Below are positions 29,391 through 57,472 of a DNA stretch of 64,000 nt, piece by piece. Under the pieces are notes generated by a model. That model did not search any database and was not told the DNA's origin. It saw only the letters and a program-made list of their open reading frames with translations. The stretch comes from Thermodesulfobacteriota bacterium. GTDB taxonomy: Bacteria > Desulfobacterota > Binatia > Binatales > Binataceae. The position numbers were made by a program, and so were the translations under genes. Each line of letters starts with the position of its first letter. The stretch's first letter is position 1. The stretch is taken from NCBI GenBank assembly GCA_046728175.1, contig JBKPEA010000005.1:12795-76794 (forward strand), read 5' to 3'.

Positions 29391-30420
29391 TTACAACGTT
29401 GCCAGCGCTTCGGACGCCAACGCGCGCCTCATCTCACCCGCGCGGCGCGCGAGACGGGCGGCCTGGCCTGACCACATATTCATAAACGCGTTCGAGCCGG
29501 AAGGTTCGGATTTAGCCCTCAGCGGGACAACCGCGCTGCTCGCGAGTGGAAAATTCGGCAAAGCTGACGCAATCGGACCAACTTCCAGCATCAGCCGATT
29601 AACAATGCCCCGCGCCGGGCGGCCAGTGAACACGTTGGTGATCATCGTGTCGTCATCGGTAGCATGACTCAGTGCTTCGAGATGCAGTGGAGGCACCTCG
29701 GCCTCCGGACAGAATAAATATGCAGTACCGATCTGGACAGCAGATGCACCCAGTATGAGCGCCGCGACGATCCCCGCGAGCACCCGCTATTCCCCCGGCC
29801 GCGATGACCGGAACCCCGACTGCGTCTACGACTTGCGGCACTAGCGCGAAGGTTCCAACTTGCCGAGCCATGTCGTCGGTAAGAAAGTTCCCGCGATGGC
29901 CCCCCGCCTCGAACCCCATTGCGATGATCGCATCGCAGCCGTGAGATTCAAGCCACCGCGCTTCACGCACCGTCGTCGCCGAAGCTACCACGCGTGCCCT
30001 GGTCGCCTTGACGCGGTCAAGGAGATGCTTGGCGGGCAAGCCAAAATTGAAGCTGACAATTTGGGGTTTGAACTCCTCTATGAGGGCGCACGATTCGGCA
30101 TCGAAAGGTCTACGGGACGGAGCGGCTACCGGAGCTTCGGGATCCAGTCCAAGCTCGAGATAATAGGGCTTAAGCAACGCCCGCCATGCTAACTCGCGCT
30201 CTTGGTCTCGGATCGGAGGGGTGTGACAGAAGAAGTTGAGATTCAATCGGCCGCGACGTCGCCCGACGTATTGTCTCTGACGCGGTCCTGATCTCACCGC
30301 CACCGAGTTGTGCGCAGGGCAAAGAACCCAACCCGCCGGCCTCGCTAACTGCAATCGCGAGCGCAGCGGTTCCCGGACCGGCCATCGGCGCCTGGACGAT
30401 GGGAAACTAAATACCCGAAC
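29391..30420 (-). pseudogene. Nitronate monooxygenase (NMO/2-nitropropane dioxygenase family), frameshifted
   Basis: MAGPGTAALAIAVSEAGGLGSL N-terminus, GFEAGGHRG and VPVIAAGGIA core, ILGASAVQIGTAYL C-terminus lie in three different frames. Confidence 0.65.
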
Positions 30421-30470
30421 AGGTCGAGGATACGTTGATCGGGCCATGCTTTCATCGTGGTTTGGCTACC

Positions 30471-37810: not shown

Positions 37811-38017
37811 TTAGGATCGCCTTTTTTTGCGCGACGGCACCTTTGCACCGCTCCGACGCGCTTCTGACAAGCCGATCGCAATCGCCTGCTTTCTGCTTTT
37901 GACTTTCTTTCCCGAGCGCCCCGACCTCAGCGTTCCGTGTTTTCGTTCGTGCATCGCACGTTTGACTTTCTTCGATGCCTTGGGTCCATATTTCCGCCTC
38001 GAAGCTTTCCTGGCCAT
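37811..38017 (-). CDS. Small basic protein (hypothetical, stress-associated type)
   Basis: MARKASRRKYGPKASKKV...KHGTLRSGRSGKKVKSRKQAIAIGLSEARRSGAKVP; GGAGAA RBS. Confidence 0.45.
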   Translation of the reverse strand: MARKASRRKYGPKASKKVKRAMHERKHGTLRSGRSGKKVKSRKQAIAIGLSEARRSGAKVPSRKKRRS

Positions 38018-38078
38018 AGCCGATTCTCCTTTCTCGACCAACACCCAGCGCGTGTTAGACGGCTATTTTTCCACAATC

Positions 38079-38560
38079 GCAATCGCCCCATTTCGAGACG
38101 ACTGAATTGCTCCTGGGTCCATTGAAGATGCTCTTCTTCTTCCGGCTCCACTTCCGAGACGGCTGCGTTCAACACATCGAGAATCTTTGCATCATCGGTT
38201 TGACGGGCGATCTTACCGAGCAACTCCCAATCCGCGTGATCCTTAGTCTCGGCGAGTATGATGTTCTCGATTGCATTGATTTCGGCCGCCCCGCCTGTCA
38301 GCCCATTGGTCATCGTCTTGAGCAGAGCTTCAGCCTTCCTTACTTGGTCGCGATCTTTGCTCCCGAACTAATGTATTAGGATCCAGGCCGAGCTGCCGGA
38401 TGACTCGGGTCAGGATCGTTTCATGCTTTCGCGTCTCCCGAAACAGAGCGGAACCTCTTCTAGAGCAGCAATCACTATGCCATCTTGAGTCTATCACTAC
38501 TCTTTGGAAACGAACCGAACTTATTTGTGGAACCCATCTGCAGGCTTTCAAATGGAGCAT
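38079..38560 (-). pseudogene. DUF892/YciF-like ferritin-like protein, fragmented
   Basis: ETILTRVIRQLGLDPNTL in one frame and KDRDQVRKAEALLKTMTNGLTGGAAEINAIENIILAETKDHADWELL...EEEEHLQW in another. Confidence 0.35.
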
Positions 38561-38795
38561 CTACGCGCCGTTCCGATTGAAAACAGAAACTGTGAAACTC
38601 TCGCTCATTCCAAGACCGTCCTGGCGACCCGATCTTTGGCTACGGCAGGTCAGAACCCACTTAGACGAGACAAATCTGCGTGCGCGCCCTATTCACGCAG
38701 AAGCGTGCTGAATGAAAACCTTTCTCGTTTCAGGTTTTCGCACTCGGAGGAATTTCGTCTACAGTTGGCGCCGTGGACAACGTTGGCGCGGATTT

Positions 38796-39650
38796 CTACG
38801 ATGGGCGCGCTCGGCCCCGGGAACACCTCGAACGCGTCTGCCCGCCCCTCTCGCGCGAGGGCCCCCGACCGCGGTGGCCAGCTGCTTCCTCCCTATTCGA
38901 AGGCTTCGTGCCCCGCGAGGCCAGCGAATCCTTCAGCGCCTTCATCAGGTCGATCGTCTTAGCAGGTCTTCGCGCAGGCGCGATGGTCAATTCCTCGCCG
39001 GCTACTTTCTCCTTTGCCAGCTTCAGATCCTGCGATAGGTGTCCTCGAATTGCTCGGCCCCGAACTCCTCTTTTGAGAGACCCTCGATCAAACGTTCCGC
39101 AAGCTTTAGCTCCGAACTCTTCAGCGACCTCCTCGCACTCTGCACGATCTCCCTGCACGGCCGGATTTCGTCAGCGTAGTGCATCGTATGTGACATCAAG
39201 ACGTTTTCATAAGGACGAATTAGCGCGAGGTGCTCCTTGCCGCGCATTACCAATTTTGCTAGCGCCGCTCGCCGGCTCTTTGCATGGCAACCTTTAGCAG
39301 GTGGCAGGCTTTGGCACTGGAAGCACTGCATCCCAGGAGATAGGCAGAAACAAAGTACACCGGATCAACCGCCGCCATCGGAATGAACTGCAATATGTCG
39401 ATCTCGCTCCAGACTCGACCTTTTCAGCTCCTTTGTCGTAAAACTGACATACTCCCCCTTTCGAATCTGAAAGCCATGCACCAGTTCGCTGCGCTCGAGG
39501 GCTCCTTCTCCTTGATGCAATAGAGTTATTCGCATATCCGGCTCTTATCTTTCGCTTGGAGCAGGTCGGCGTACAGAGTTCGAGCGAGTCGCCGCAAATA
39601 GTTCGACCGGAATCGAGACGAGCCCAAGGAAGGCTACTTCGTGAGATCGC
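38796..39650 (-). pseudogene. ku: Ku (NHEJ DNA end-binding protein), multiply frameshifted
   Basis: MARKAIS then EVAFLGLVSIPVELFAATRS N-terminus, middle ERLIEGLSKEEFGAEQFEDTYRRI, C-terminal KTIDLMKALKDSLASRG; spread over three frames. Confidence 0.6.
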
Positions 39651-40077
39651 TTTACGCGCCATCCTGGGTCTCCTCTCTTACTGCCAAAAAACTCGCCAAC
39701 TTGGACCGTCTGATTTTTTAATACGTCTCGCCGATTCACCACTTGAGCAAGCTTTTGAAAAAGGTCATCGCATTAAGTCATGTTCGAGCCCGCGATAGCT
39801 TCCTTAGTCCGATATCAACGTCAACTTTTTTTGCACATGACAATTCGCGTTCCAGCGACCAACGCTGCGCTTAGAAACCAAATGACCAGGAACTCTTGCC
39901 ATCAGATTCGATGCGGCACAGTCGGAGTGGGCAGCTATCGGCAAAGGGAGGCTTTCAAACTTGCGCGGTATCTCGAAAGAGCCACGCTAGCCGGTTCGGC
40001 TAAATCCGAAACCGCTCCGCATACGTTTTCTTGAATTCCAACCCGTGGCCGGGCCGAGAGCGGTCGGGTGCGGCCCT

Positions 40078-41045
40078 TCAGTCTCGCGGCCGTACCGCGC
40101 CCTCGAACAACATTCGCTCGATTCGATCGTGATCGTGAAAGAACTCCAGGTGGACCGCGGGCCGGACCGCGCAACACGCATGAACCTGAAGCGCCGGACA
40201 ACAATACGCCGACAGCGGAATCGATCGAGACTCACAAAGCGCCGCGACCCGGAGAAACCCCCTCAACCCCGCGCATCGCGATGCGTCGGCCTGCAAGACG
40301 TCGACCGCGCCGTGCGTGATCATCCGATTGAAATACGGAAGGTCATAATCGTATTCACCCGCCGCGATGTCCATCCCGGCCGGCGCGCGATCCCGCAGCA
40401 TCCGCAACCCATCCAGGTCGTCCGATGACACCGGTTCCTCGAACCAGCTAACACCGAACTCCTGCAACTGCTCGGCCAAGACCAGCGCTTGTTTGCGCTA
40501 GTAAGCCCCATTCGCATCCACGAAGAGAGCGGTCCGCGGTCCGATTGCCTGGCGCGCGGCCCTGACTCTGGCAGCATCCTGATCGGGTTCGCGCCCAATC
40601 TTCATTTTCACTTTCGTATACCCCCCGCCGCCCACTTCCCGAGTTGCTCTTGCAGCCGTGCACGGTCGTACGAAGTGAAACCGCCGCTGCCGTATACTTC
40701 GATGCGATCGCGAGCCGCGCCGAGCAGATCCACCAGGGGAATGATGCTTTCAGGTCCCCCAGCGCCGCATCGACCGCCGCGATCCCATCGAGCAAATTCC
40801 GGGACGTCCGAGATTCCGAACCGCGTGAACCATTGCCGACCAATTGCCGTCAATCTGCATTGCGTCGCGCTCGCGAATCAGGGGGGGCGAGCAGATCATG
40901 GATCACCACTGAAGTGGCGCGGTCCGCGCACGTATAGCCGACACCCCAATGACCCGCGGCTAAGACTTCAACCGTCACTATGGTCGTGGAATCCCACTCA
41001 AGCGTGCCGTCTGACTCTGGATAGTCGGTGGGAATGCGGCAAACG
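40078..41045 (-). pseudogene. Enolase-superfamily enzyme (mandelate racemase/muconate lactonizing family), frameshifted
   Basis: N-terminal RIPTDYPESDGTLEWDSTTIVTVEV, middle IIPLVDLLGAARDRIEVYG, C-terminal GVSWFEEPVSSDDLDGL..IAAGE in different frames. Confidence 0.6.
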
Positions 41046-41098
41046 GTGACCCGTGGTTTCTTCGACTTTGGCGACAGAGCTGCTCATCGCGCGCCGTT

Positions 41099-42840
41099 TC
41101 AGATCAGCTCGCGAATTCGGTCACCGAACACCGTGTACGCGATTTTTTCACGATTCGGCTCGCCCTTGATCAGCGATTCAGCGAAGTGCTTCGCCTGCTC
41201 GAAAGTCACCTTCGCCGGCATTGGCGGCTCAAGAGCATCCACTTCCGCCTCGATCAGGGCGGGACCCGGCTGGGCCAGCGCCTCCTCGAGGATTTGGCCG
41301 CATTGGGTCTGCTCCTTGATTGTGAAGCCCTGCGCCCCGCATGCGCGTGCGTACGCGGCGAAGTCGATCGGTTGAAGATCGACTCCATACTCGGGCACGC
41401 CCAAGAAGACCATCTGCTCCCATTTAATCTGTCCCAAGGTATTGTTCTTGACCACCACGATCTTGACCGGCAGTTGGTACTTCACGCAGGTCACCAGCTC
41501 GGCCATCAACATGGAGAATCCGCCGTCGCCGACAAACGCCACACATTGGCGATCCGGATACGCCACTTGCGCGCCGATCGCATATGGCAGCCCGCACGCC
41601 ATCGTCGCCAGGGTCCCTGACACCGAATGCATTTGGCCACGCTTGACGCGAATATGGCGCGCCCACCACGTGGTGATCGTTCCGGAATCGCAAGTCACGA
41701 TTGCGTCGGAACGCAGCCGCTGCCAAGCTCGTGCGCAACGACTTGCGGTTTCATCGGATGGTCCGCTCGTGTAGCGCGCCGCAACATCAACTCCTCCCAC
41801 TCGCGTGCCCCCTCCTGCGCTTTCTCGAGAAACGAGCGGTCCTCCTTGCGTTTGAGTAACGGGAGTAGAGCATCGAGCGCTTTCCGGCAGTCTCCGACCA
41901 ATCCCGACTCGACCGGATACCGGAGCCCAATACGGACCGCATTCAGATCGATCTGCACGGCGCGCGCCTGATCAGGCTTGGGCAGGAATTCGATGTACGG
42001 AAACGAGCTGCCCACGATTAACAAGGTGTCACAGCTTTCCATTGCATCCTGTGAAGGAGTCGTGCCGAGTAGACCGATTCCGCCTGTCGTGTACGGACTG
42101 TCATCCGGAACGCACGCTTTCCCGAGCAGTGCCTTGACGATCGGCGCGGCCAGCATCTCCGCGGTCTTTTCGAGCTCGTTGCCAGCGCCCAGGGCCCCCG
42201 CGCCGGCAAGAATCGTCACGCGCCTGCCTGCGTTCAGAATTTCGGCAGCCCGCCGCAGGTCATCCGGATTTGGAATCGAACCGGACCCTACAAAGCGCAG
42301 CGAGGTATGATGTGCCAGATTCCGCGCAGATCTCTGCTGCTTCGACATCATCTGCACGTCGGTCGGAATAGTCACGTGCGAAACACTGCGATAGGCAAGC
42401 GCTGTCCGGCACGCCAGATCCGTGACGGTCTCAACATGCTCGACTCCCATGACACGTGCGTTGTACGCGGCGACGTCCATGAAAAGCTTGTCGAGTTCGA
42501 CGTCCTGCTGCGAATGAGTACATAGCAGGTCGTGGTGGTGAAGCCCGGTTATTGCCAATACCGGAGCACCATCGAACTTTGCGTCGTAAAGTCCGTTCAG
42601 AAGATGGATACCGCCCGGGCCGGAAGTAGCGAGGCATACGCCAAGACGCCCCGTGAACTTCGCATACGCGCACGCCATGAGGGCCGCCGCCTCCTCGTGC
42701 CTGACCTGGACAAATCGGACAGTCTCCTGCTTTCTGCGCAGCGCTTCCATGACGCCATTGATGCCGTCGCCCGGCAACCCGAACACGGTATCGACGCCCC
42801 AAGCGACCAGTCTTTCGATGAGGATATCTGCTGCTGTCAT
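41099..42840 (-). pseudogene. Thiamine-diphosphate-dependent pyruvate oxidase/PoxB-like enzyme with one frameshift near 41740
   Basis: 394-aa N-terminal part (GVCLATSGPGGIHLLNGLYDA) and 233-aa C-terminal part (VAFVGDGGFSMLMAEL TPP motif) are in different frames but contiguous. Confidence 0.7.
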
Positions 42841-43119
42841 TTGCTTTCTTGTGAGATACCCAGGTCGAAAGCAAGACACAGGCCCGGTAAAACTGCTTCT
42901 AGACGCCGGTCAATTCGGCGATCACGGGCATTCGGAAGAAATTGCACACTCGCGTATCAAACCGAAATTCTTGTCACTTTTACTCAAACAATCGAATCTC
43001 GACCAAAGCTCACGGTACGCTTGCTTAAGTTTATTTGCTGCGTCGATTCACCGGTTCAGACATAATAAATGCCCCTACTCTTGCTGCTTACCGATCCGCA
43101 TCTGCATTTCCAAAAATCG

Positions 43120-43890
43120 ATGCCAGAGATTCGAATAGGAACTTCCGGCTGGAACTACCGCGAATGGCGCGGCAGCTTCTTTCCGGCTGATTTGCCAATG
43201 AGGAAGTGGCTCGCCTTCTACGCCACGCAGTTCAACTCGGTGGAGATCAACTACTCTTTCTATCGATTGCCTTCGGAGCAGACCTGCGAGTCATGGTACC
43301 TGCAGACACCGAACAGCTTCCGATTCGCGTTGAAAGCATCGCGGTATCTGACTCACATCAAGCGCCTCGTCGATGTACGCGATGCGTGGGACACCTTCCT
43401 CGCGCGCATCTCGACCCTGAAGCATAAGTTGGGGCCCATCCTGTTACAGTTCCCTTCGACATTCACTGCCACCAGCGATAATCTTCGATCACTGGCCTCC
43501 TTCCTCGAATATGCCGCACACCAGCAATCGGCGCCCCGACTCGCGATGGAATTTCGTGACGAGTCATGTTTTGGCAGCGCGACGCTGGCTGTTCTGAGGG
43601 AGCATCGGGCCGCCCTGGTGATCTCTCACTCCAGCAGGTATCCCGTCCCCGATTTGATCGCGACGGCGCCAATCAGCTACTTCAGGTTCCACGGACCACA
43701 AGCGATGTTCGCTTCTTCGTACCGGCCCGTGGAGCTTTCACGATGGGCCGCTCAGATCACTGAACGGATGCCAACTACACACTCGATTTACGCCTATTTC
43801 AATAACGATTCCGGGGGTCACGCACCGCGAAATGCCGCGATGCTGCGGCAGCAGGTAAAATCGCGATTGAAGGAAAGACGCGAGTCCTAG
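43120..43890 (+). CDS. DUF72 family protein (YecE-like)
   Basis: IRIGTSGWNYREWRGSFFP, YATQFNSVEINYSFYRLP, YAYFNND motifs. Confidence 0.8.
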   Translation: MPEIRIGTSGWNYREWRGSFFPADLPMRKWLAFYATQFNSVEINYSFYRLPSEQTCESWYLQTPNSFRFALKASRYLTHIKRLVDVRDAWDTFLARISTLKHKLGPILLQFPSTFTATSDNLRSLASFLEYAAHQQSAPRLAMEFRDESCFGSATLAVLREHRAALVISHSSRYPVPDLIATAPISYFRFHGPQAMFASSYRPVELSRWAAQITERMPTTHSIYAYFNNDSGGHAPRNAAMLRQQVKSRLKERRES

Positions 43891-43905
43891 ACCTGAGCTC
43901 AAGAA

Positions 43906-44862
43906 TCACTCGACCGGTCCGAGCAAGCGACCCGATGCAGCTTTCGAGGAGTCTCGGTCATTCGCCATTGCGAAGGTGGACGCAGAAAGCCGCCGACGCA
44001 ACCCCGCGTAATGCCGGCTTTTACGCATCGACTCGACGAAATCCCGCGCACTCTCCGCCAGGCGGATTTCCTTTTCCTTGATGCGACGAATGAGCTTCAC
44101 CGCGTTTGGATCGCGCGGAAGGTCCTCGAAGGTTTCGGCCGCCCGCTGCCCGAGCGTCAATTCATCATGCCACGCACCCACCCGATTCTGCACTTGCTTG
44201 AGCCAATCGGCGCCGCGCTCGAGTTCCGGGTCCGGGTACAACTTCAGCTCCAGTTTGAGTGCATAACGAAGACTTTTGGACTTGATCCTCACTTGATGCA
44301 GACCGGTGCTGGTATTGTCCCCAATGAAATCATCGATGCTTGCCAGCCATTTCTCCCAGCAATGTTTGATTAAACTGCGCAAATCCCGAACGAAATGTCC
44401 GGAGCCACACTCCTGCTTTGCCAGCTTCTTCAATTTCGAAGCCGTAGCCTTGACGGGCAGCGATCTTCGGACTCGGAAAAATCGCTTCGACGCCTGCCGA
44501 TGCGTCTTTTGTGTGCGCTTACTCAACGTGCGCCAATAGGGTCGCTCAGTGCGAGGCTCGCGTCGATGATGCACCTTGTCTATTTCAGCGAGCACTACAT
44601 CGGTATCCCGCCAATCGCCCAACACGTGGCGGAATTTCTGTAGCTTTCGACGCAGGCGTTTGGCTCTTCCCCCCTGGCTATTAATTCCGCAAGTCTCGAC
44701 CACCGCCTGAAGGTGGCGCGTGGCCTTGCGAAAATCATGCACTGCTTCCGAATCCGCTCTCTCGACAATGTCGTCGAATCGTTCTTCAAGTTGGCGCGCA
44801 CGTCGCTTCGCCTGGCGTCGGAATTCTTTTGCGAGTTCTTTGCGTTGAGACATAGCCGTCAC
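43906..44862 (-). CDS. CHAD domain-containing protein
   Basis: Helical, His/Arg-rich; VHDFRKATRHLQ and HQVRIKSKSLRYALKL CHAD-like repeats. Confidence 0.55.
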   Translation of the reverse strand: MTAMSQRKELAKEFRRQAKRRARQLEERFDDIVERADSEAVHDFRKATRHLQAVVETCGINSQGGRAKRLRRKLQKFRHVLGDWRDTDVVLAEIDKVHHRREPRTERPYWRTLSKRTQKTHRQASKRFFRVRRSLPVKATASKLKKLAKQECGSGHFVRDLRSLIKHCWEKWLASIDDFIGDNTSTGLHQVRIKSKSLRYALKLELKLYPDPELERGADWLKQVQNRVGAWHDELTLGQRAAETFEDLPRDPNAVKLIRRIKEKEIRLAESARDFVESMRKSRHYAGLRRRLSASTFAMANDRDSSKAASGRLLGPVE

Positions 44863-44872
44863 CGCCTTCTTC

Positions 44873-45938
44873 TCAGCGTCGAAAGGGCGGAATTTCGGTG
44901 CTGCGAATTCCAGTTCTCATCTGCTGCGGCATTGCTGCTCTGGTGGGCTGATGCGCGACGCGGCGATCGCCTCGAGTGACCTTCTCCTCGCGGCTGAAAT
45001 GCGGGACGATTTTCTCCGAGTAGAAGCGGAAGAAGTCGCGTTGATTGGGCCCCACCTGGTGGACGTATACGTGATCGAAACCCGCATCCATGAATGTCTG
45101 GACTCCAGCGATGTGCGTTTCAGGATCGGGACCGAGAGGCATGCCTTCTGTGATCTTGTCCGGGTCCATGATGGCGATCGCTTCCTCGAAGTGGGACGGC
45201 AGCGGCAGATCGGTCATTAAGTGTCCGCCAATTCCCGGGTTGGACCAGTATTTGCGCACCGCTCCTGCCGCTTCTTCTTCGCTGCGTGCCTAACATACGG
45301 TCAACTGACCGTACCGCGGTTTGCCCAGGCCGCCTGCGCGCTCGAAGCCGCACACGAGCTCTGAATTGGGTTCAAGACTGGTCAGGCCGTCGCCCACCCG
45401 CCCGGCCAGTTCGGCGGCGCCTGGCCTGCTCGCTGCGACCATGATCGAGGGCGGCTCACGGGAAGAGTGAAGATCCGGGGGCGATCGATCGTGAAGTATT
45501 TCCCCTCGTGCGTCTGCCATCCGCCGCGCCACAGCAAGCGAATTGCCGAGATCGCTTCTTCAAGCATCTCGAGCCATTGATGAGGCGTCGGCCAGCGCTT
45601 CCCGGTGATGTGCTCGTTGAGCTGTTCTCCGGTTCCCACTCCGAGAAAGAAGCGGCCAGGCAGCAGCGCGGCTGAGGTAGCCGCACCTTGGGCTACCAGT
45701 GCAGGACTTATCCGCATAGTCGGGCATGTGACCCCAAGCCTGAGCCGTTGCGTCGGCTGTGAAATGCCGCCTATCACGCTCCATACGAAAGGACTGTCCG
45801 GTTGCGGGTTTGTCCAGGATGAAAGTGATCCGAAATCAGCGAGAAATTGAAGCCCGCATCCTCGGCTTCTTGCGCGTAGGTGACGAGATCGGCAGGAGCA
45901 GTCTCCTCGCTGGAAAGAGAATATCCAAGTTCGGTCAT
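44873..45938 (-). pseudogene. LLM-class F420/flavin-dependent oxidoreductase (luciferase-like), fragmented in three or more frames
   Basis: MTELGYSLSSEE..FNFSLISDHFHP, RLRLGVTCPTMRISPALVAQ, FFLGVGTGEQLNEH, DHVYVHQVGPNQRDFFRFYSEKIVPHF segments in different frames. Confidence 0.6.
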
Positions 45939-46501
45939 GATGGGTGCTCCACGACGGCGACGACGATTCCCCTTTTCCCTGAAGCAAAGAACAGGCCCTA
46001 CGAAAGTTGGCGCCGCTCCGTCGGCGCTCGATGGTGATTCAGGAAGCCGGAATAAACTGCCGACTGACGCGTCAAAATTAGATTCTTCCCCGCATGAGCT
46101 CCAGTCCGCTATCCAAAGCTTGCTGACAAAGACAGATGCTTGAAGGCAGATCGCCCACCGATGCAATGCCGCGGTGCACTCTCTGCTTCTTTATTTCAAC
46201 ACGGCATCAGCCATGAGCAGTATTCCGCCAACTGATGAGGTGACCGGAATAACTTCGCTGATTCTCGCTTGCGATGGCGCTGCCGATTCTTGGAATCGTG
46301 GTGTATGGTTTTCGCAGTGGGATGGACTTCCCTCGGTTTCGGTTCATTCGGGGTAATGATCGCCGTCGCAATCGTTTATTATCTGATTCTCAGCGTCAGG
46401 TTGCGCCATCGCCAGCGCTAGTCGCGCAAATCCGCAAAAATAGGCAAACCATAGTATTGAATCGCGCTTGTTTCATCGCAAGTTTAACCTAGCTCTGGGA
46501 C

Positions 46502-47416
46502 CTAACGCATCGCTTCCAGATACTTTTGAGCTTTGCTTAGTGAAGTGGCACTTCGATCGATCCTAGACCATGCATCACCTTTTTTTGCGATACGACGCAG
46601 CACCGTTTTGATGCTGTACTTCTGCGCATTAAGGCCCTTTGCCAAGGCCTCCGGCCAGGTCAGTGGCGTCGCCACCGGAGCGCCTTCCCTTGCACGCACC
46701 GAGTATGGCGCTACCGCGGTTTGTGCGCGCGAGTTTCGCAGGTAGTCGAGGAAGATCCTCCTGCCGCGCCGCTCCTTACGTTGTTCCACTGTCAGCTCCC
46801 GCGGATGCCGCTTCGCCATCAGGGTGGCAAGCTCCCGCGCAAAATCATGGACCCTGTCGAAGTCCGCGGATCGGTCCAGGGGCACCACGATATGCATTCC
46901 GCGCGATCCGGTAATTTGCGCAAAAGAGGTCAACTCCAAATCGTCCAGCATCTGCTTGAACGTGCGCGCCGCCGACTGCACCGCGGCGAAATCAGCCGTG
47001 GATGGATCCAGGTCGATTATCATCCGGTCGGGATGGTCGATCCTATCGCGCCGGGAGAGACCCGAGTGAATCGTGATGCAATTTTGCTCGGCCAGGTAAA
47101 TCAGCGTGGCGGCATCGTCGGCCACGACCTCGGTAACCTTGCCGCCGATCTTCCGAAGCGCGACCCGGTCGATCCAGCGCGGAAAATATTCGGGAACTTC
47201 CCGATTGAAAAAGCCCTGCCGCCCGATTCCGTCAGGATAGCGCTCCATGATCAGGGGCCGGCCCGTGACATGCGGCACCATCACTTTCGCGACCTCTGCA
47301 TAGTATTCGACCAGCTCAGCCTTGGTGATTCCGCTCTTTGCGAACAGGACTTTGTCGGGATGGGTCAGCTTGACCACATGGCCGCCGGCGCGAATGTCGA
47401 TGGTCTTTGTCCTCAT
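46502..47416 (-). CDS. ligD: LigD polymerase/primase (PrimPol-like) domain protein
   Basis: VVKLTHPDKVLF, ITGSRGMHIVVPL, RGRRIFLDYLRNSRAQTAVAPYSVRAREGAPVATPLTW motifs. Confidence 0.8.
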   Translation of the reverse strand: MRTKTIDIRAGGHVVKLTHPDKVLFAKSGITKAELVEYYAEVAKVMVPHVTGRPLIMERYPDGIGRQGFFNREVPEYFPRWIDRVALRKIGGKVTEVVADDAATLIYLAEQNCITIHSGLSRRDRIDHPDRMIIDLDPSTADFAAVQSAARTFKQMLDDLELTSFAQITGSRGMHIVVPLDRSADFDRVHDFARELATLMAKRHPRELTVEQRKERRGRRIFLDYLRNSRAQTAVAPYSVRAREGAPVATPLTWPEALAKGLNAQKYSIKTVLRRIAKKGDAWSRIDRSATSLSKAQKYLEAMR

Positions 47417-48414
47417 ACGGACGCCCGCTCGCGAACGATTTCGCGTGGGCGCTTGTCGTAGCGCAGCCCGCGGAAACTAGGATGCCGGAGTTTTCCGTCC
47501 CGCGTCCATTCCGAGAATGCAAATTCCCCCATCAGCCGCGGCGCGATCCAGGTCGCGTGCCGCTCCCCGACTTCATCGAGGAATGGACGTTCCCTTCGTC
47601 GCATACGATTCATTCGTTCGCGCAGCTTCAACCGCGTCGATACGCTGAATCCCGTTCCGACTTTTCCGGCGTACCGAAGTCTGCCGTCCTGGTAGTAACC
47701 GACCAGTAACGCTCCGAAGCCTTTCGCGCTGCCGCGCGGCTCCGTGAAGCCGCCGATGACGAGTTCCTGCCCCTGCGAGCATTTGAACTTGAGCCAGTTC
47801 GGAGAGCGGCCCGAGACATACGGAGAATCGGCACGTTTGGCGAGCAAGCCCTCCCACCCTCTGGCGCAGGCTTCCGCGAAATATCTCTCCCCATGTTTCT
47901 GCCGATGCGCAGTGAATCGAATGGGGGCATCGAAGCTGAGCGCCCCCCGCAATAGCTCTTTACGCTCCAGCAACGGCAACGCGCTCGTGTCGTAGCGATC
48001 AAGATAGAGCAAGTCGAAGAGATAGAAGAACACGCGGACTTTGCTCTGGCTCGCCTCCTGGGATCGAATCTGCATCCGCTCCTGCAACTTCATAAAGCTG
48101 GTTTGCGACCCGGAAAATGCCACCACTTCGCCATCAACGGCGAAGCTCTGCGGGAGCTGCTTCCGGAGCGCTTCGGCCAGTTCCGGGTAGGTCTGATTGA
48201 GATCCTTCCGATTGCGGCTCATCAACTGGACTCGCCTGCCGGAAACGAACGCGAGCACCCGCTGCCCATCAAATTTCCGCTCGAAAATCCAATCCGGATT
48301 GGAAAAGCGGGTCTGCGTAAGCGTCGCCAGCATCGGTGAGATCCAGCGCGGAGCCGAAGCGGCCTTGAGCAGCGCGCGACTTGCGGGTGGTAATTGACGC
48401 ACCGGATCGGTCAT
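47413..48414 (-). CDS. ligD: ATP-dependent DNA ligase (LigD ligase domain)
   Basis: ERKFDGQR KxDG adenylation motif, EGLLAKR, WLKFK; 4-nt overlaps with both flanking genes. Confidence 0.85.
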   Translation of the reverse strand: MTDPVRQLPPASRALLKAASAPRWISPMLATLTQTRFSNPDWIFERKFDGQRVLAFVSGRRVQLMSRNRKDLNQTYPELAEALRKQLPQSFAVDGEVVAFSGSQTSFMKLQERMQIRSQEASQSKVRVFFYLFDLLYLDRYDTSALPLLERKELLRGALSFDAPIRFTAHRQKHGERYFAEACARGWEGLLAKRADSPYVSGRSPNWLKFKCSQGQELVIGGFTEPRGSAKGFGALLVGYYQDGRLRYAGKVGTGFSVSTRLKLRERMNRMRRRERPFLDEVGERHATWIAPRLMGEFAFSEWTRDGKLRHPSFRGLRYDKRPREIVRERASV

Positions 48415-49052
48415 GCGTGCGGGCCGCCGTGCTGAGCCATTTGCTCGACTGTCTTTCCGCTGACTACCGATGTCCGCTCCTTTCGGACGGGTTCCTTACG
48501 CGTACTCGCGTTTTCATCGCGGCCCTTGATAAGAAACCAGCGCCGCTCGCGGCCCCGTCCTACTCGTTGCAAGACAAATCGGCCCTTGAGCTTCTTGCCC
48601 AAAAGTTCAAAGACCAGGTGTCCGTCCCGAATAGCGCGACCGGCGTCCTTGATCGTTTCCGCAGGTCCGCGAGTCACATTTTTCCAGGTGCCACGATCCC
48701 ATACGATTACGGCGCCGGCGCCGTATTGCTTGGCAGGGATGACGCCCTCGAATTGAGCGTAGTCTATCGGATGATCTTCGGTCGGAACCGCCAGGCGCTT
48801 CACCTTGGGATCGATGGAAGGTCCTTTGGGAACCGCCCACGATTTCAGGACATCGTCCACCTCCAGCCGGAAATCATAGTGCATCGCCCGCGCATCATGT
48901 TGCTGGATAACGAACACCGGTTTCCCGCCGGGGTTATGCGCGCGCCCACGCGGCTCCGGAGTCTTGGCGAAGTCGCGCTTACGCTTATAAGTCTTGATGC
49001 TCATTGCATGGTATTGTTTTCTTGATTTATCTTCGTCGCGAATCAGCGGCAT
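48411..49052 (-). CDS. ligD: LigD 3'-phosphoesterase domain protein
   Basis: FVIQQHDARAMHYDFRLE, LKSWAVPKGPS, EDHPIDYAQFEGVIP motifs. Confidence 0.8.
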   Translation of the reverse strand: MPLIRDEDKSRKQYHAMSIKTYKRKRDFAKTPEPRGRAHNPGGKPVFVIQQHDARAMHYDFRLEVDDVLKSWAVPKGPSIDPKVKRLAVPTEDHPIDYAQFEGVIPAKQYGAGAVIVWDRGTWKNVTRGPAETIKDAGRAIRDGHLVFELLGKKLKGRFVLQRVGRGRERRWFLIKGRDENASTRKEPVRKERTSVVSGKTVEQMAQHGGPHA

Positions 49053-49231
49053 TTTTATTTAGGTCCGCGTGCTGTCATGATCGCGCGCATGCGATTCCCG
49101 ACACTGTTATGGCCGCAGTGGCATACTGACGCGCCTTCATCGCGTATATCTGACTCGCATTCGTCGGAACAGTACTTTTCGACCGCTCGTAGCGGCGCAG
49201 TTTCAGAGCTTGTGTGAGCATTTAATCATCT

Positions 49232-49271
49232 TTTGGATGTGGGAATGACCCTTTGGATGTGGGAATGACCC
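49232..49271. repeat. Perfect tandem direct repeat 2 x 20 bp (TTTGGATGTGGGAATGACCC) plus partial third copy
   Basis: Seen directly in the 417-bp intergenic region between ligD-PE (-) and the 49470 gene (+). Confidence 0.7.
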
Positions 49272-49469
49272 TTTGATTGACAGCATCATCCATGCCATCG
49301 CTGTGTTCCGCTCATTACCTTTGCCTTTGTTTGCTTGAATTGTGATCTAGCGAGCGGATACCCACATCCGGTTTCAGCCGCATCGCCAGGCTGTATTTCG
49401 ACATACATCGGGAAATGCTTTTCCGGCACAGTCCATGCTTAATCTGAAATTCCGAAAGGAGAATCCATT

Positions 49470-49727
49470 ATGAATAGCAGATTTTTTATCATCGCCCTCG
49501 TCATCGCATCATTACTCGGCTCGACCGCCTGCTTTAGTTACAAAAAGGAAGTAAACGAAACACCGCCTTCCTCTACCACGGTCGTACAGCCGCCTTCCTC
49601 CACCACGGTGGTTCAGCCCGTCAATCCGACGTCCAGCACGACTTCCCAGACCAGCACCACTACTGACAGCGAAGGGAACACCGTCGAACGGAACCGTTCG
49701 ACTACAACGACCACGCCGGGTTACTGA
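49470..49727 (+). CDS. Small secreted Ser/Thr/Pro-rich protein with internal PPSSTTVVQP repeat
   Basis: Signal peptide; tandem 10-aa repeat; 85 aa. Confidence 0.4.
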   Translation: MNSRFFIIALVIASLLGSTACFSYKKEVNETPPSSTTVVQPPSSTTVVQPVNPTSSTTSQTSTTTDSEGNTVERNRSTTTTTPGY

Positions 49728-50229
49728 CAACTTCCAGCAATTCGCTTGATCGACACGCGTTCAGCGCTCGTCCGGCTCGTCGCGCCAGCAAGAATTTCCC
49801 GGTTCACACCGCCTCGAGCCGGATTGGAAAACCCGACGCCTAGGTCAGGCCTGAGCAGGGCAGTTGCTCAGGTTTCCTCCTCAGACGCACAGAGTGTCAA
49901 ATGGCAAGAGCAAACACTGACCACAATAGCACTCAAAGATCGGCGTCACGCGACCGTAGACAAACGCCGATTTGGCAGGAGTGGCTACACGATTTCCTGT
50001 TAGAGATGCTCGCAGTCGAAATAGACGGCTTAAAGCTTTACGAAAAAAGATCAGCGAAATCCATCATACGGAATTTGTAAATAGGCTCACCGAATTTCTT
50101 CACCAGACAGATTCCATGTTGAAGTATGTACAGAAATGTTGACCGCGTCTGGAGCGAGCGCCGACTATCGGAGCGCGGGTGCTGAAGCGGCCGATCACAA
50201 GGCTCAAGGACTCATCTCCACTAAGCTAC

Positions 50230-50514
50230 CGCTAAGGTACCGCACGAGCTGACCGACCTGAACAACATCGAAAATCTAGTCCTCGCCGAGACCAAGGATT
50301 ATTGGAACTGGGAGACGCTCGCATCGCTCGAAAAGAAGATTGCGATCCCGAGCTGAGGGGCATGGTCCCTCGAGCAGTCCGCGAGGTGCGCGCACAAGAA
50401 AAGACTCATCTGCACTGGAACGAGCGCACTCTTACCACCTTGGCAATGGAAGCAGCGATGAAGGGGCCGGCAGTCGTCGAAACCGAAGCTACGGAGCATA
50501 CTGACTTGGGCTAA
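50230..50514 (+). pseudogene. Second degraded DUF892/YciF-like fragment (paralog of the 38079-38560 remnant)
   Basis: NIENLVLAETKDYWNWETL and EKTHLHWNERTLTTLAMEAAMKG parallel the AIENIILAETKDHADWELL / EEEEHLQWTQEQFSRLEMG segments of the other copy. Confidence 0.3.
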
Positions 50515-51378
50515 AGGAGGCCTTCCGAGTGGCGACCACGAAAGAGCGACGGCGGCGCGCCAGAATATCGAGAAGGCTGCGGCAGCGGCGTACAGGAAAC
50601 GGACTATCGCTAACTGCCGAAGTCAATTGGTACCGAACTGGGCAAGAACTGCGCCGCCGCCCGCAAGAACCGCGCTCATTAAAGGCAGGAATAACCGTGA
50701 AGTTGGAAGAGCTGCGCAACGGACTCCGGTTTGGGTACCGGGTGGGAAGGGGATAGATTCCGGCGACCGTAACCCGGCTCGATCAAAGCGAGACGTTTCC
50801 CAAATTCAAAACCTGGCCGCGGGAGCGATCCGATTGTCACGGTGGAAATTTGTCTCGATAACGATCGCGCAAAGCCTCAATTTGAAAAGGTCAATGCGTG
50901 CCTCTGCGCACCCCCGAGCCCGCGTCGACAGGTAAGGATAGACCATGCACCATTGACGAGCTGCGGATTGGCAGGCGCATCGTCTTTCCGTTTGATTTCG
51001 GTTTCGTTCTTTCGATGTTCGCTGAAGATCGCGGAATAGGATAAGCCGACCCTTGTCCGTCCTCGTCGGACTAAAAGGAATGCGTAGAATTTTCCGGCTT
51101 CTACGGGTAGTGAATCGCTCCTGATACGGGGCGCCAAGGTAATGGCGAATCGAACCTGTCGCGTGAGTCCCTGGTTTGATCAGCACGAGCCTTAATGTCA
51201 TCGGTTTCGGTTTGCGATTCAGAGGAACAATCTCGGAGACGGAATAATTTCCGAACTCATGCCATCACTCATTTAGCGAGCGATATCCTTGATTCTTCTT
51301 GTCGTAAAATCGCTTGGCATCAGCCTTGCACCCATTCTCTATGAGCTTCGGCTCGAGAGTTTCTACGAGGCGCAGAAA

Positions 51379-56196: not shown

Positions 56197-57472
56197 CTAT
56201 ACGGGTCGGCTGAACCAACCGGACGTAAGGACGAGCGGACGCGGAGACCGCCTCTTCAGGCGATCTCCGCAAGGTTGCGTTTCGTCAGTCCTTCTTGGGA
56301 TAGAGCCCGGGCCAAACAGATCGGAGAGATCGTTCGTGCCAGCAGTGGCGGCATCACCCAAGTACGGCTGCCCCACGTGGAAAATATTCTCCATGGCGCG
56401 CAGGTCGGAGGAATGCGTGAAGTTGACCGGGCTGGCAAATGGCTTACCGCCACTCTGGCGGGCATCCTCCGAGATGATTATTTCACCGATGGTGTGATCG
56501 AAGTCATCGGCGTTGTCGCCCGAAACGCCATCCTGTTCGGATTCGTCGAACCAGATGATTATTACGCCGTGGTCCTGGTAGGCCTTCGACGCCATAATCA
56601 TCGGAATGACTAAGCTAAGGAAGTTGTCTCCCTGCCGGATCTTCGCCGCGTCGCCCGTGAGGCCCTGGAACCCCCGTCAGCGTGGTGTGCATATCGTTGT
56701 ACTGGTCGGGTGTGATCCAGTTGTAATCGGCCACAGCGTCATTGGCCAGGTCGGCGGCCAGTTGCTGTAGTGGCGCATATTGCAAGCGCATCGGATTCGA
56801 AGTGCTGAAATCACAACTGCCATTGGTATCGTCGAAAAAGACCATCGGGTTGTGCTTGGCAGCGTAGTTGAATTGGTTGGAGCCGTTGTAGGCGTTGGTG
56901 CCGGACGCAAAGATCCCTAAGAAGCTCTGCAGCGGCACAGTCCAATCGCTTTGGGGTTCGACCGCATTGTCGAGCGTGGCTCCGTCCGGGGTCAGATCGA
57001 TGTCCTCCTGGTACGACTTCCAGGTTTTTCCGGCATTAGTGATGAAGGTGGCAAGATGCTGGGTGGTGTTCTGGACCGTAGGGGCACCATTGGTGCCGCA
57101 CGGATCGTCGTCATTGAGCACGCCAAAATTGGTGCCCGCCTCCGACCATAAGTAGTTTGGCTCGGAAGGATGGATGTGAAGATTGTTGCCGGTCGAGGTG
57201 GCCAGGACGTTGTGATACGCGGTGGCGTACGACACCTGACCGCTGATCGACGAGGTTCCGTTCACGAGGCTGTTGATATAGGGTGCGTCAGGGTTCTGGA
57301 AAATCTGCTGAATGCCGCCGGTGAATTGATTCGCGGGCTGTGCCCAATTGTGGTTTTCCATCGCAATAACGAAAACGGTCTTGACGTTATCGGCCCAAGC
57401 GCCGCTGAAACCGCCAAGCCACAGGAGCAGGGTGCACATACCAACGATGTGCAGACGTCTGGAGTGCTGCAT
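56197..57472 (-). pseudogene. PF04185 phosphoesterase family (AcpA/phospholipase C-like), one frameshift in a G5 homopolymer
   Basis: Signal peptide, VFVIAMENHNW, HPSEPNYLW; ...YNDMHTTLTG then frame change at ggggg (~56650) into FQGLTGDAAKIRQGDNFLSLVIPMIMASKAYQDHGVIIIWFDESEQ. Confidence 0.65.

Follow-up and report, generated by a model that had tools for sequence, protein, structure and literature searches.

The window analysed here, a 64,000-nucleotide stretch of contig JBKPEA010000005.1 (positions 12,795 to 76,794, forward strand; assembly GCA_046728175.1), comes from a Thermodesulfobacteriota bacterium of the family Candidatus (Ca.) Binataceae; the best named matches of its LpxD are all from this family, at 65-81% identity. 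It carries on the minus strand two elements related to bacterial non-homologous end joining (NHEJ): three genes that encode separately the 3'-phosphoesterase (PE), ligase and primase-polymerase (Pol) domains of LigD, and, about 6.8 kb further along the same strand, the remains of a Ku gene (Table 1). As argued below, these are very probably two separate things, a stand-alone PE-ligase-Pol operon kept by selection and a genuine, fairly old Ku pseudogene lying amid decayed genes.

Table 1. Features of the LigD and Ku region, in window coordinates
Feature	Position	Strand	Basis or remark
LigD-type PE gene, 213 aa as called	48411..49052	-	PF13298, TIGR02777, alignment to 2LJ6
Overlap ATGA of PE stop and ligase start, ...GCATGACC	48411..48414	-	read from sequence
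Stand-alone LigD-type ATP-dependent DNA ligase gene, 333 aa	47413..48414	-	PF01068, PF04679, TIGR02779
Overlap ATGA of ligase stop and Pol start, ...GTATGAGG	47413..47416	-	read from sequence
Stand-alone LigD-type Pol gene, 304 aa	46502..47416	-	PF21686, TIGR02778
Ku pseudogene, six frameshifts and a TAA stop	38796..39662	-	three-frame translation, frameshift-aware alignment
Unconstrained 778-bp spacer downstream of the Ku pseudogene	38018..38795	.	position of fused LigD in the closest Ku relatives
Enolase-superfamily (MR_MLE) pseudogene remnant	40078..40853	-	upper bound 40853 approximate
Pyruvate-oxidase-like thiamine pyrophosphate (TPP) enzyme gene, split by one frameshift	41099..42879	-	
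Intact DUF72 (YecE-like) gene, between Ku and the trio	43069..43890	+	PF01904, E=6e-67
Intact CHAD-domain gene	43906..44853	-	PF05235
Luciferase-like monooxygenase pseudogene, at least four frame pieces	44873..46166	-	

The three LigD open reading frames (ORFs) are co-encoded on one strand in the order PE-ligase-Pol and joined by two ATGA overlaps, at exactly the coordinates given in the original prediction, whose further claim that all three are intact and retain their catalytic motifs is borne out by comparison with profile models and solved structures. PE matches the Pfam model PF13298 LigD_N (E=1.6e-43; 147.7 bits, cut-off 31.1) and exceeds the cut-off of the NCBIfam model TIGR02777 (210.3 bits against 144); the ligase exceeds that of TIGR02779 (284.8 bits against 227.75) and comprises PF01068 DNA_ligase_A_M and PF04679 DNA_ligase_A_C, the OB domain being present; and Pol matches PF21686 LigD_Prim-Pol (E=4.7e-90, 302 bits) and exceeds the cut-off of TIGR02778 (268.7 bits against 214.7). 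Conversely, the ligase scores only 138 bits, against a cut-off of 296, with NF006078, the equivalog model of an alternative stand-alone ligase of ~350 aa (LigC). The three ORFs tile the 870-position model of fused LigD, NF004628, at positions 4-195 (PE), 236-550 (ligase) and 579-866 (Pol), with 244, 292 and 276 bits. Each remains below the whole-protein cut-off of 895 bits and each lies in a frame of its own, so the locus does not encode a conventional one-polypeptide LigD.

When aligned to the PE of Pseudomonas aeruginosa LigD (2LJ6, E=2e-51), the PE of the window is identical at the H..H.D.R and H...Y positions: the His, His, Asp, Arg, His and Tyr of its segments 'qqHdaramHyDfRle' and 'edHpidY' match those of 2LJ6 and, by comparison with the P. 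aeruginosa domain, are presumably catalytic. The PE of Methanocella paludicola (5DMP) is also among its best solved matches. For the ligase the best solved match is the ligase domain of Mycobacterium tuberculosis LigD (1VS0), with motif I KFDG aligned with KWDG, and for Pol it is the stand-alone NHEJ Pol of M. paludicola (5DMU), which scores 330 bits, against 159 bits for the M. tuberculosis PolDom, and with which DLD, SGSRGMH (SGSRGxH) and FLDYLRN are conserved. The three-gene LigD operon is intact, complete in its motifs and, by its layout, translationally coupled.

The state of the Ku gene is entirely different. Its lesions were placed by frameshift-aware protein-to-DNA alignment to the intact Ku of a related locus (L028): the frame changes at about 39629, 39568, 39500, 39409, 39275 and 39024, and an in-frame TAA stands at 39528, so that no uninterrupted Ku reading frame exists. 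Once corrected for these lesions, the translation scores 217 bits with TIGR02772 Ku_bact (cut-off 150) over model positions 2-259 of 259, agrees with the L028 protein at 176 of 281 aligned residues and reaches 60-64% identity with the best intact Ku proteins. The description of this gene as heavily degraded, spread over three frames and some 7 kb away from the LigD genes stands, but its start at 39650 does not: the true start is the ATG at 39662, which has a good ribosome-binding site (GAGAGGAG) ahead of it, and the ORF that begins there opens with MARKAISRSS, typical of Ku, and then drops out of frame.

The same broken gene was found in metagenome assemblies of the Joint Genome Institute (JGI), reached by exact-protein look-ups that included alternative starts. 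Called genes in these assemblies include the 122-aa out-of-frame ORF, which runs from the true start of Ku, and Ku fragments of 74 and 56 aa; exact look-up of the 102-aa Ku fragment gave no match, but its alternative starts did. Contig L089 (sample 3300079549) is 99.98% identical to window 38956-45163 without a gap, and contig L095 (sample 3300078518) is 100% identical over 39024-40358; both have Ku lesions identical to those of the window. Contig L094 (sample 3300085324) is 99.3% identical to the window, and a contig from sample 3300041966 has the same pattern of Ku fragments. Genome and metagenome scans with the reconstructed Ku returned relatives at 59% identity or less and not the organism of the window itself. 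That the frameshifts are sequencing or assembly artefacts, which would make the locus an ordinary complete NHEJ set as one branch of the original prediction had it, is extremely improbable, for although the sequence is a metagenome-assembled genome (MAG) and several neighbouring genes are frameshifted too, which could suggest poor local assembly, the lesions recur identically in separately assembled JGI contigs, include indels of 2 bp and 4 bp as well as a nonsense substitution (the TAA) rather than single-base homopolymer slips, and are matched by a different, overlapping set in a diverged sister lineage, while the adjacent LigD trio, AI-2E and DUF72 genes are free of indels. Ku is a genuine pseudogene, not an assembly artefact, and of the two branches the one that took the damage as real is the live one, with a LigD trio that persists without this Ku.

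The sister lineage gives the loss of Ku a relative date. It is represented by contigs L092 (sample 3300085325) and L093 (sample 3300085324), which are ~96% identical to the window, i.e. about 4% diverged. Its Ku likewise contains six frameshifts, two of which, at 39500 and 39409, are those of the window and four its own; the other four frameshifts of the window and the TAA stop are absent from it. Since two lesions are shared and the others lineage-specific, Ku was broken in the common ancestor, before the lineages split, and then decayed independently in each.

Divergence between the two lineages is very unevenly distributed. Over its 867 bp Ku has accumulated 25 substitutions (2.9%) and 11 indels; the spacer downstream of it shows 4.4% substitutions and 4 indels, and the 1439-bp flank upstream of the trio (49053-50491) 5.7% and 18 indels. 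The intact AI-2E transporter gene (1812 bp) shows 1.6% substitutions and no indel, the DUF72 gene no indel either, and the LigD trio (2551 bp) 26 substitutions and no indel. The pooled dN/dS of the trio, the ratio of nonsynonymous to synonymous substitution rates, is 0.40 (binomial p=0.012 against neutrality), on the basis of only these 26 substitutions. At the rate of indel differences seen in Ku, the 1.86 kb of LigD sequence from 47195 to 49052 should contain ~24 indels, and at the rate of disabling lesions acquired by Ku after the split (9 lineage-specific ones in 867 bp, both lineages taken together) ~19 such lesions; none of either kind is observed. In the lineage of the window alone, the five disabling lesions that Ku has received since the split translate into ~15 for the 2.55-kb trio, and there are none. 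Given 0 indels in the trio against 11 in Ku and a dN/dS of about 0.4, the trio is under purifying selection and is not decaying, while this Ku is dead. It is therefore very unlikely that the trio is dead weight left by the loss of Ku, spared disabling mutations only so far and heading for loss, an outcome that the original prediction had allowed for. The trio does adjoin a tract of pseudogenes, and loss of NHEJ components, in one step or sequentially, is common in bacterial evolution (PMC7719229), but the missing lesions, the dN/dS value and the intactness of all catalytic motifs speak against it.

Several points weigh against the reading of a selected LigD operon beside a long-dead Ku. A second ku may be encoded beyond the 64 kb of the window, given the multiple Ku genes of other bacteria and the several Ku clades of Binataceae MAGs (see below). 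The sequences compared are all metagenome assemblies, and the comparison is made at the assembly level. The dN/dS estimate is drawn from few substitutions, and all 26 of them, which are those of contig L090, have window coordinates of 47195 or higher, with none in the 1.5 kb below; the claims made from the sister lineage are therefore limited to 47195-49052, and beyond PE, the ligase and the first ~220 bp of Pol its evidence is not firm. The start codon of PE is ambiguous: the gene as called lacks a clear ribosome-binding site, and because the PE proteins of relatives are 196-200 aa long, translation may in fact begin at the ATG at 49004, for a protein of 197 aa. Finally, a promoter and terminator scan around the trio yielded one promoter-like site (49078-49051), which is not above shuffle expectation. 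In support of the comparison, contig L098, from a second sample, confirms the sister-type PE and ligase N-terminus.

L090 itself was rejected as a clean sister-lineage contig on account of the abrupt end of its substitutions at 47195. It shows no substitution with respect to the window over 45709-47194, though the flanks differ by 1-6%, and may be a recombinant, carrying a recombination tract, or a metagenome contig that is chimeric between strains.

The three-polypeptide LigD had been thought unusual, and comparison of LigD domain architecture among relatives had been proposed as a check; the split arrangement turned out to be common. The best 120 homologues of the ligase, down to 55% identity, are all stand-alone proteins of ~334 aa without any domain beyond those of a ligase; Alpha- and Gammaproteobacteria, Desulfovibrionales and many metagenomes are represented among them, and they go by the NCBI name "non-homologous end-joining DNA ligase". 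The nearest relative of the trio, found in soil metagenome contigs from four samples (L024-L027), has a ligase 69% identical to that of the window, a PE(196)-ligase(334)-Pol(308) arrangement and a 4-nt overlap, and the isolates Rhodosalinus sp. K401 (L096) and Wenzhouxiangella (L097) possess a matching PE-ligase-Pol operon. The 4-nt ATGA overlap of PE and ligase is the same in L024, L096 and L097 as in the window. Taken together, these operons, which extend to other phyla, resemble the trio in gene order and overlaps, encode proteins of 196-200, 334 and 298-308 aa and are 52-69% identical to it; they have no Ku within 10 kb, whereas the window has a decayed one 6.8 kb away. A 264-aa ORF that follows the L024 trio was tested as a candidate Ku and is not Ku. 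Separate, operon-encoded PE, ligase and Pol proteins have been reported in many species (PMC4797286, PMC5663958), and genomes of this kind have already been classed as "nonconventional NHEJ" or "LigD only" by Sharda et al. 2020 (PMC7719229). The three-gene LigD is thus a widespread, common and already described architecture, and the layout found here is not new in kind.

Among characterised systems, the NHEJ set of M. paludicola (Ku, Lig, Pol and PE as separate proteins; 5DMU, 5DMP; PMC4797286) is among the closest, in that its PE is operonic with polymerase and ligase and its Pol is by far the most similar to that of the window; it is archaeal, however, and has a working Ku, whereas the set in the bacterial Ca. 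Binataceae is known as genes alone and its Ku is a pseudogene. The Pseudomonas-type fused LigD (NF004628, ~840-870 aa) has the same three domains in the same order, with PE active-site residues in P. aeruginosa identical to those of the window, but it is a single ORF that, in relatives, typically adjoins Ku, while the trio occupies three frames with ATGA overlaps and adjoins no Ku. The mycobacterial LigC/Prim-PolC complex, which acts on gaps and nicks in base excision repair (BER), likewise combines a stand-alone ATP-dependent ligase with a stand-alone Prim-Pol (PMC5663958), and can serve as a model of how a LigD trio might act in the absence of Ku. As described, it consists of ligase and Prim-PolC without a PE component, whereas the trio includes a PE, and the ligase and Pol of the window pass the LigD-domain models TIGR02779 and TIGR02778, unlike the model of the alternative stand-alone ligase.

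Whether Ku and the trio ever constituted one NHEJ module, as originally proposed, is doubtful, and the two need not be cognate partners. The closest intact relatives of the Ku pseudogene (54-64% identity; from Binataceae, Acidobacteriota and soil metagenomes) carry, with few exceptions, a fused PE-ligase-Pol LigD directly beside Ku (L002, L028, L029, L032-L035), in the order Ku then PE in L028 and L032-L035. By contrast, the trio belongs to a separate clade of stand-alone LigD genes, and none of its three distinct relative loci (L024-L027 type, L096 and L097) has a Ku within 10 kb. The interval that separates the Ku pseudogene from the trio holds two intact genes and three more pseudogenes. 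A search beside the Ku pseudogene for a relic of a fused LigD, using the LigD proteins of the closest Ku loci, produced noise only.

Two observations on other Ku loci were made in the course of these comparisons. Relatives of Ku at 51-59% identity are also split across two frames in L077 (6028-6790) and L078 (217-1016), the former adjoining a fused LigD that looks intact; in both contigs Ku may again have been inactivated, or the assembly may be in error. A Phycisphaerales MAG (L011, 4111-17434) has Ku and a fused LigD together with homologues of three neighbours of the Ku pseudogene within 13 kb (DUF6496 at 85% identity, MR_MLE at 59% and the TPP enzyme at 46%), in a different gene order and with a Ku only 35% identical to that of the window; the resemblance could reflect a shared island or coincidence.

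What the trio might do can be outlined from the biochemistry of the family. PE would trim 3'-phosphate or ribonucleotide ends, Pol would fill in with nucleoside triphosphates (NTPs) or deoxynucleoside triphosphates (dNTPs), and the ligase would seal, the three forming a toolkit for the repair of DNA ends and gaps. It would either cooperate with a Ku from another part of the genome or act unaided by Ku, for example on nicks, gaps or microhomology-paired ends. Both the enzymatic activity of the trio and the identity or absence of its Ku partner are thus put forward here as predictions.

The first of these alternatives, in which the trio carries out classical Ku-dependent end joining together with another Ku, intact and encoded beyond the window, and the pseudogene is a redundant paralogue that was lost, is a serious contender that falls just short of being probable. 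As the closest relatives of the trio lack a Ku nearby, a partner encoded at a distance would be nothing unusual in this clade, and the closest characterised Pol, that of M. paludicola, comes from a complete NHEJ set that includes Ku (PMC8708640). Two further points favour a distant Ku: 16% of NHEJ-positive bacteria have 2-8 Ku genes (PMC7719229), and at least two Ku clades, both with a fused LigD adjacent, are represented in Binataceae MAGs (L002, L004). On the other side, no second ku is found in the 64-kb window.

The second alternative, that the trio works without any Ku, in the repair of nicks, gaps and single-strand breaks or in polymerase-mediated microhomology end joining, much as LigC/Prim-PolC does, is possible, if somewhat less likely. 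LigD without Ku is a poor ligase of double-strand breaks in vitro, which argues against it, as does the assignment of the ligase to the LigD type rather than to the other stand-alone equivalog. In its favour, selection on the trio has persisted after this Ku died, all three distinct trio relatives are without an adjacent Ku, "LigD only" genomes number 619 of 5,973, and about 10% of these possess Pol and PE (PMC7719229), and a mycobacterial stand-alone ligase and Prim-Pol act in BER (PMC5663958). The full claim that the operon is a Ku-independent repair module, kept by selection since before the sublineages split and with Ku already dead by then, is tentative and on balance unlikely.

The reading as two separate elements, a selected operon and an old Ku pseudogene, fits with either alternative. 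In the terms of PMC7719229, the genome would represent the "LigD only" state, with all domains in separate proteins, if it has no other Ku, and "nonconventional NHEJ" subclass 1 if it has one; compared with these states, the window shows a transition in progress, with a datable Ku pseudogene still in place. If these genomes contain no other Ku, the locus would be evidence, drawn from natural history, that a complete LigD set has a role in vivo that does not depend on Ku, and this lineage and the stand-alone-trio clade would be good material for the question of LigD without Ku; otherwise it is a case of ordinary paralogue loss. Either way it is a small natural experiment, in which a Ku pseudogene that can be dated to before a lineage split lies beside LigD genes under purifying selection, and it entails two corrections, namely that the three-gene LigD is a standard architecture and that the damage to Ku is biological, not technical. 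The phenomenon is real and largely ordinary; only the difference in constraint between the dead Ku and the selected LigD next to it is mildly interesting.

The DUF72 gene may be a repair-associated neighbour, perhaps a further, unrecognised partner, of Ku and LigD loci. DUF72 (YecE-like) proteins are TIM barrels, predicted to be endonuclease-like. In 21 other Ku loci, which group into about 5 clusters at 90% identity, a DUF72 gene is co-operonic with Ku, on the same strand and 0.9-1.0 kb downstream. In L047 (10001-12456), Ku is followed by a MerR-HTH/TPR protein and then by DUF72, the genes abutting or overlapping, and a stand-alone ligase lies upstream on the opposite strand. A frameshifted DUF72 relic is present ~700 bp upstream of the trio in L024-L027 (L024 8485-8696). 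No paper linking DUF72 to end joining was found in the literature searched.

Apart from the intact CHAD gene, the remaining genes between Ku and the trio are decayed. Of the MR_MLE gene only positions 63-200 of the 219 of MR_MLE_C survive, in one ORF (40078-40479); the ORFs at 40320-40853 have no MR_MLE match, though JGI calls a weak MR_MLE_N fragment there. In the TPP enzyme gene the N and M domains lie in 41695-42840 and the C domain, in another frame, in 41099-41800, a split that recurs in the JGI contigs. Three consecutive segments of the Bac_luciferase model (10-52, 45-165 and 144-189) are found in three different ORFs of the monooxygenase pseudogene. Sister contigs align to the window up to 40959; that lineage lacks a further ~425 bp (window 39891-40315), and its CHAD gene is broken by two 1-bp deletions in L091, at window 44466 and 44640. 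Decay in the 40078-46166 tract is ongoing. Within it, the JGI contigs L001 and L089 break at 45163-45203, where they overlap by 41 nt.

The region upstream of the trio, 49053-51288, is gene-poor and fast-evolving, its only plausible ORF encoding an 85-aa Ser/Thr-rich, lipoprotein-like peptide with a PPSSTTVVQP tandem repeat (49470-49727). On the far side of the Ku pseudogene, a DUF6496 gene (37811-38017) overlaps a 128-aa ORF without a Pfam match (37927-38313); one of them is probably not a real gene, or else this is a further relic. Scanned for Rfam families and for tRNAs, the window gave no matches. Two more distant ORFs, which may be truncated genes, have mid-model Pfam matches only: 29653-30447 (NMO, positions 106-207 of 331) and 56615-57472 (Phosphoesterase, positions 66-255 of 356). 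G+C content falls at around 26 kb, from ~61% over window 1-25000 to ~55-58% over 26000-60000, and the pseudogene tract, Ku and LigD all lie within this lower-GC part.

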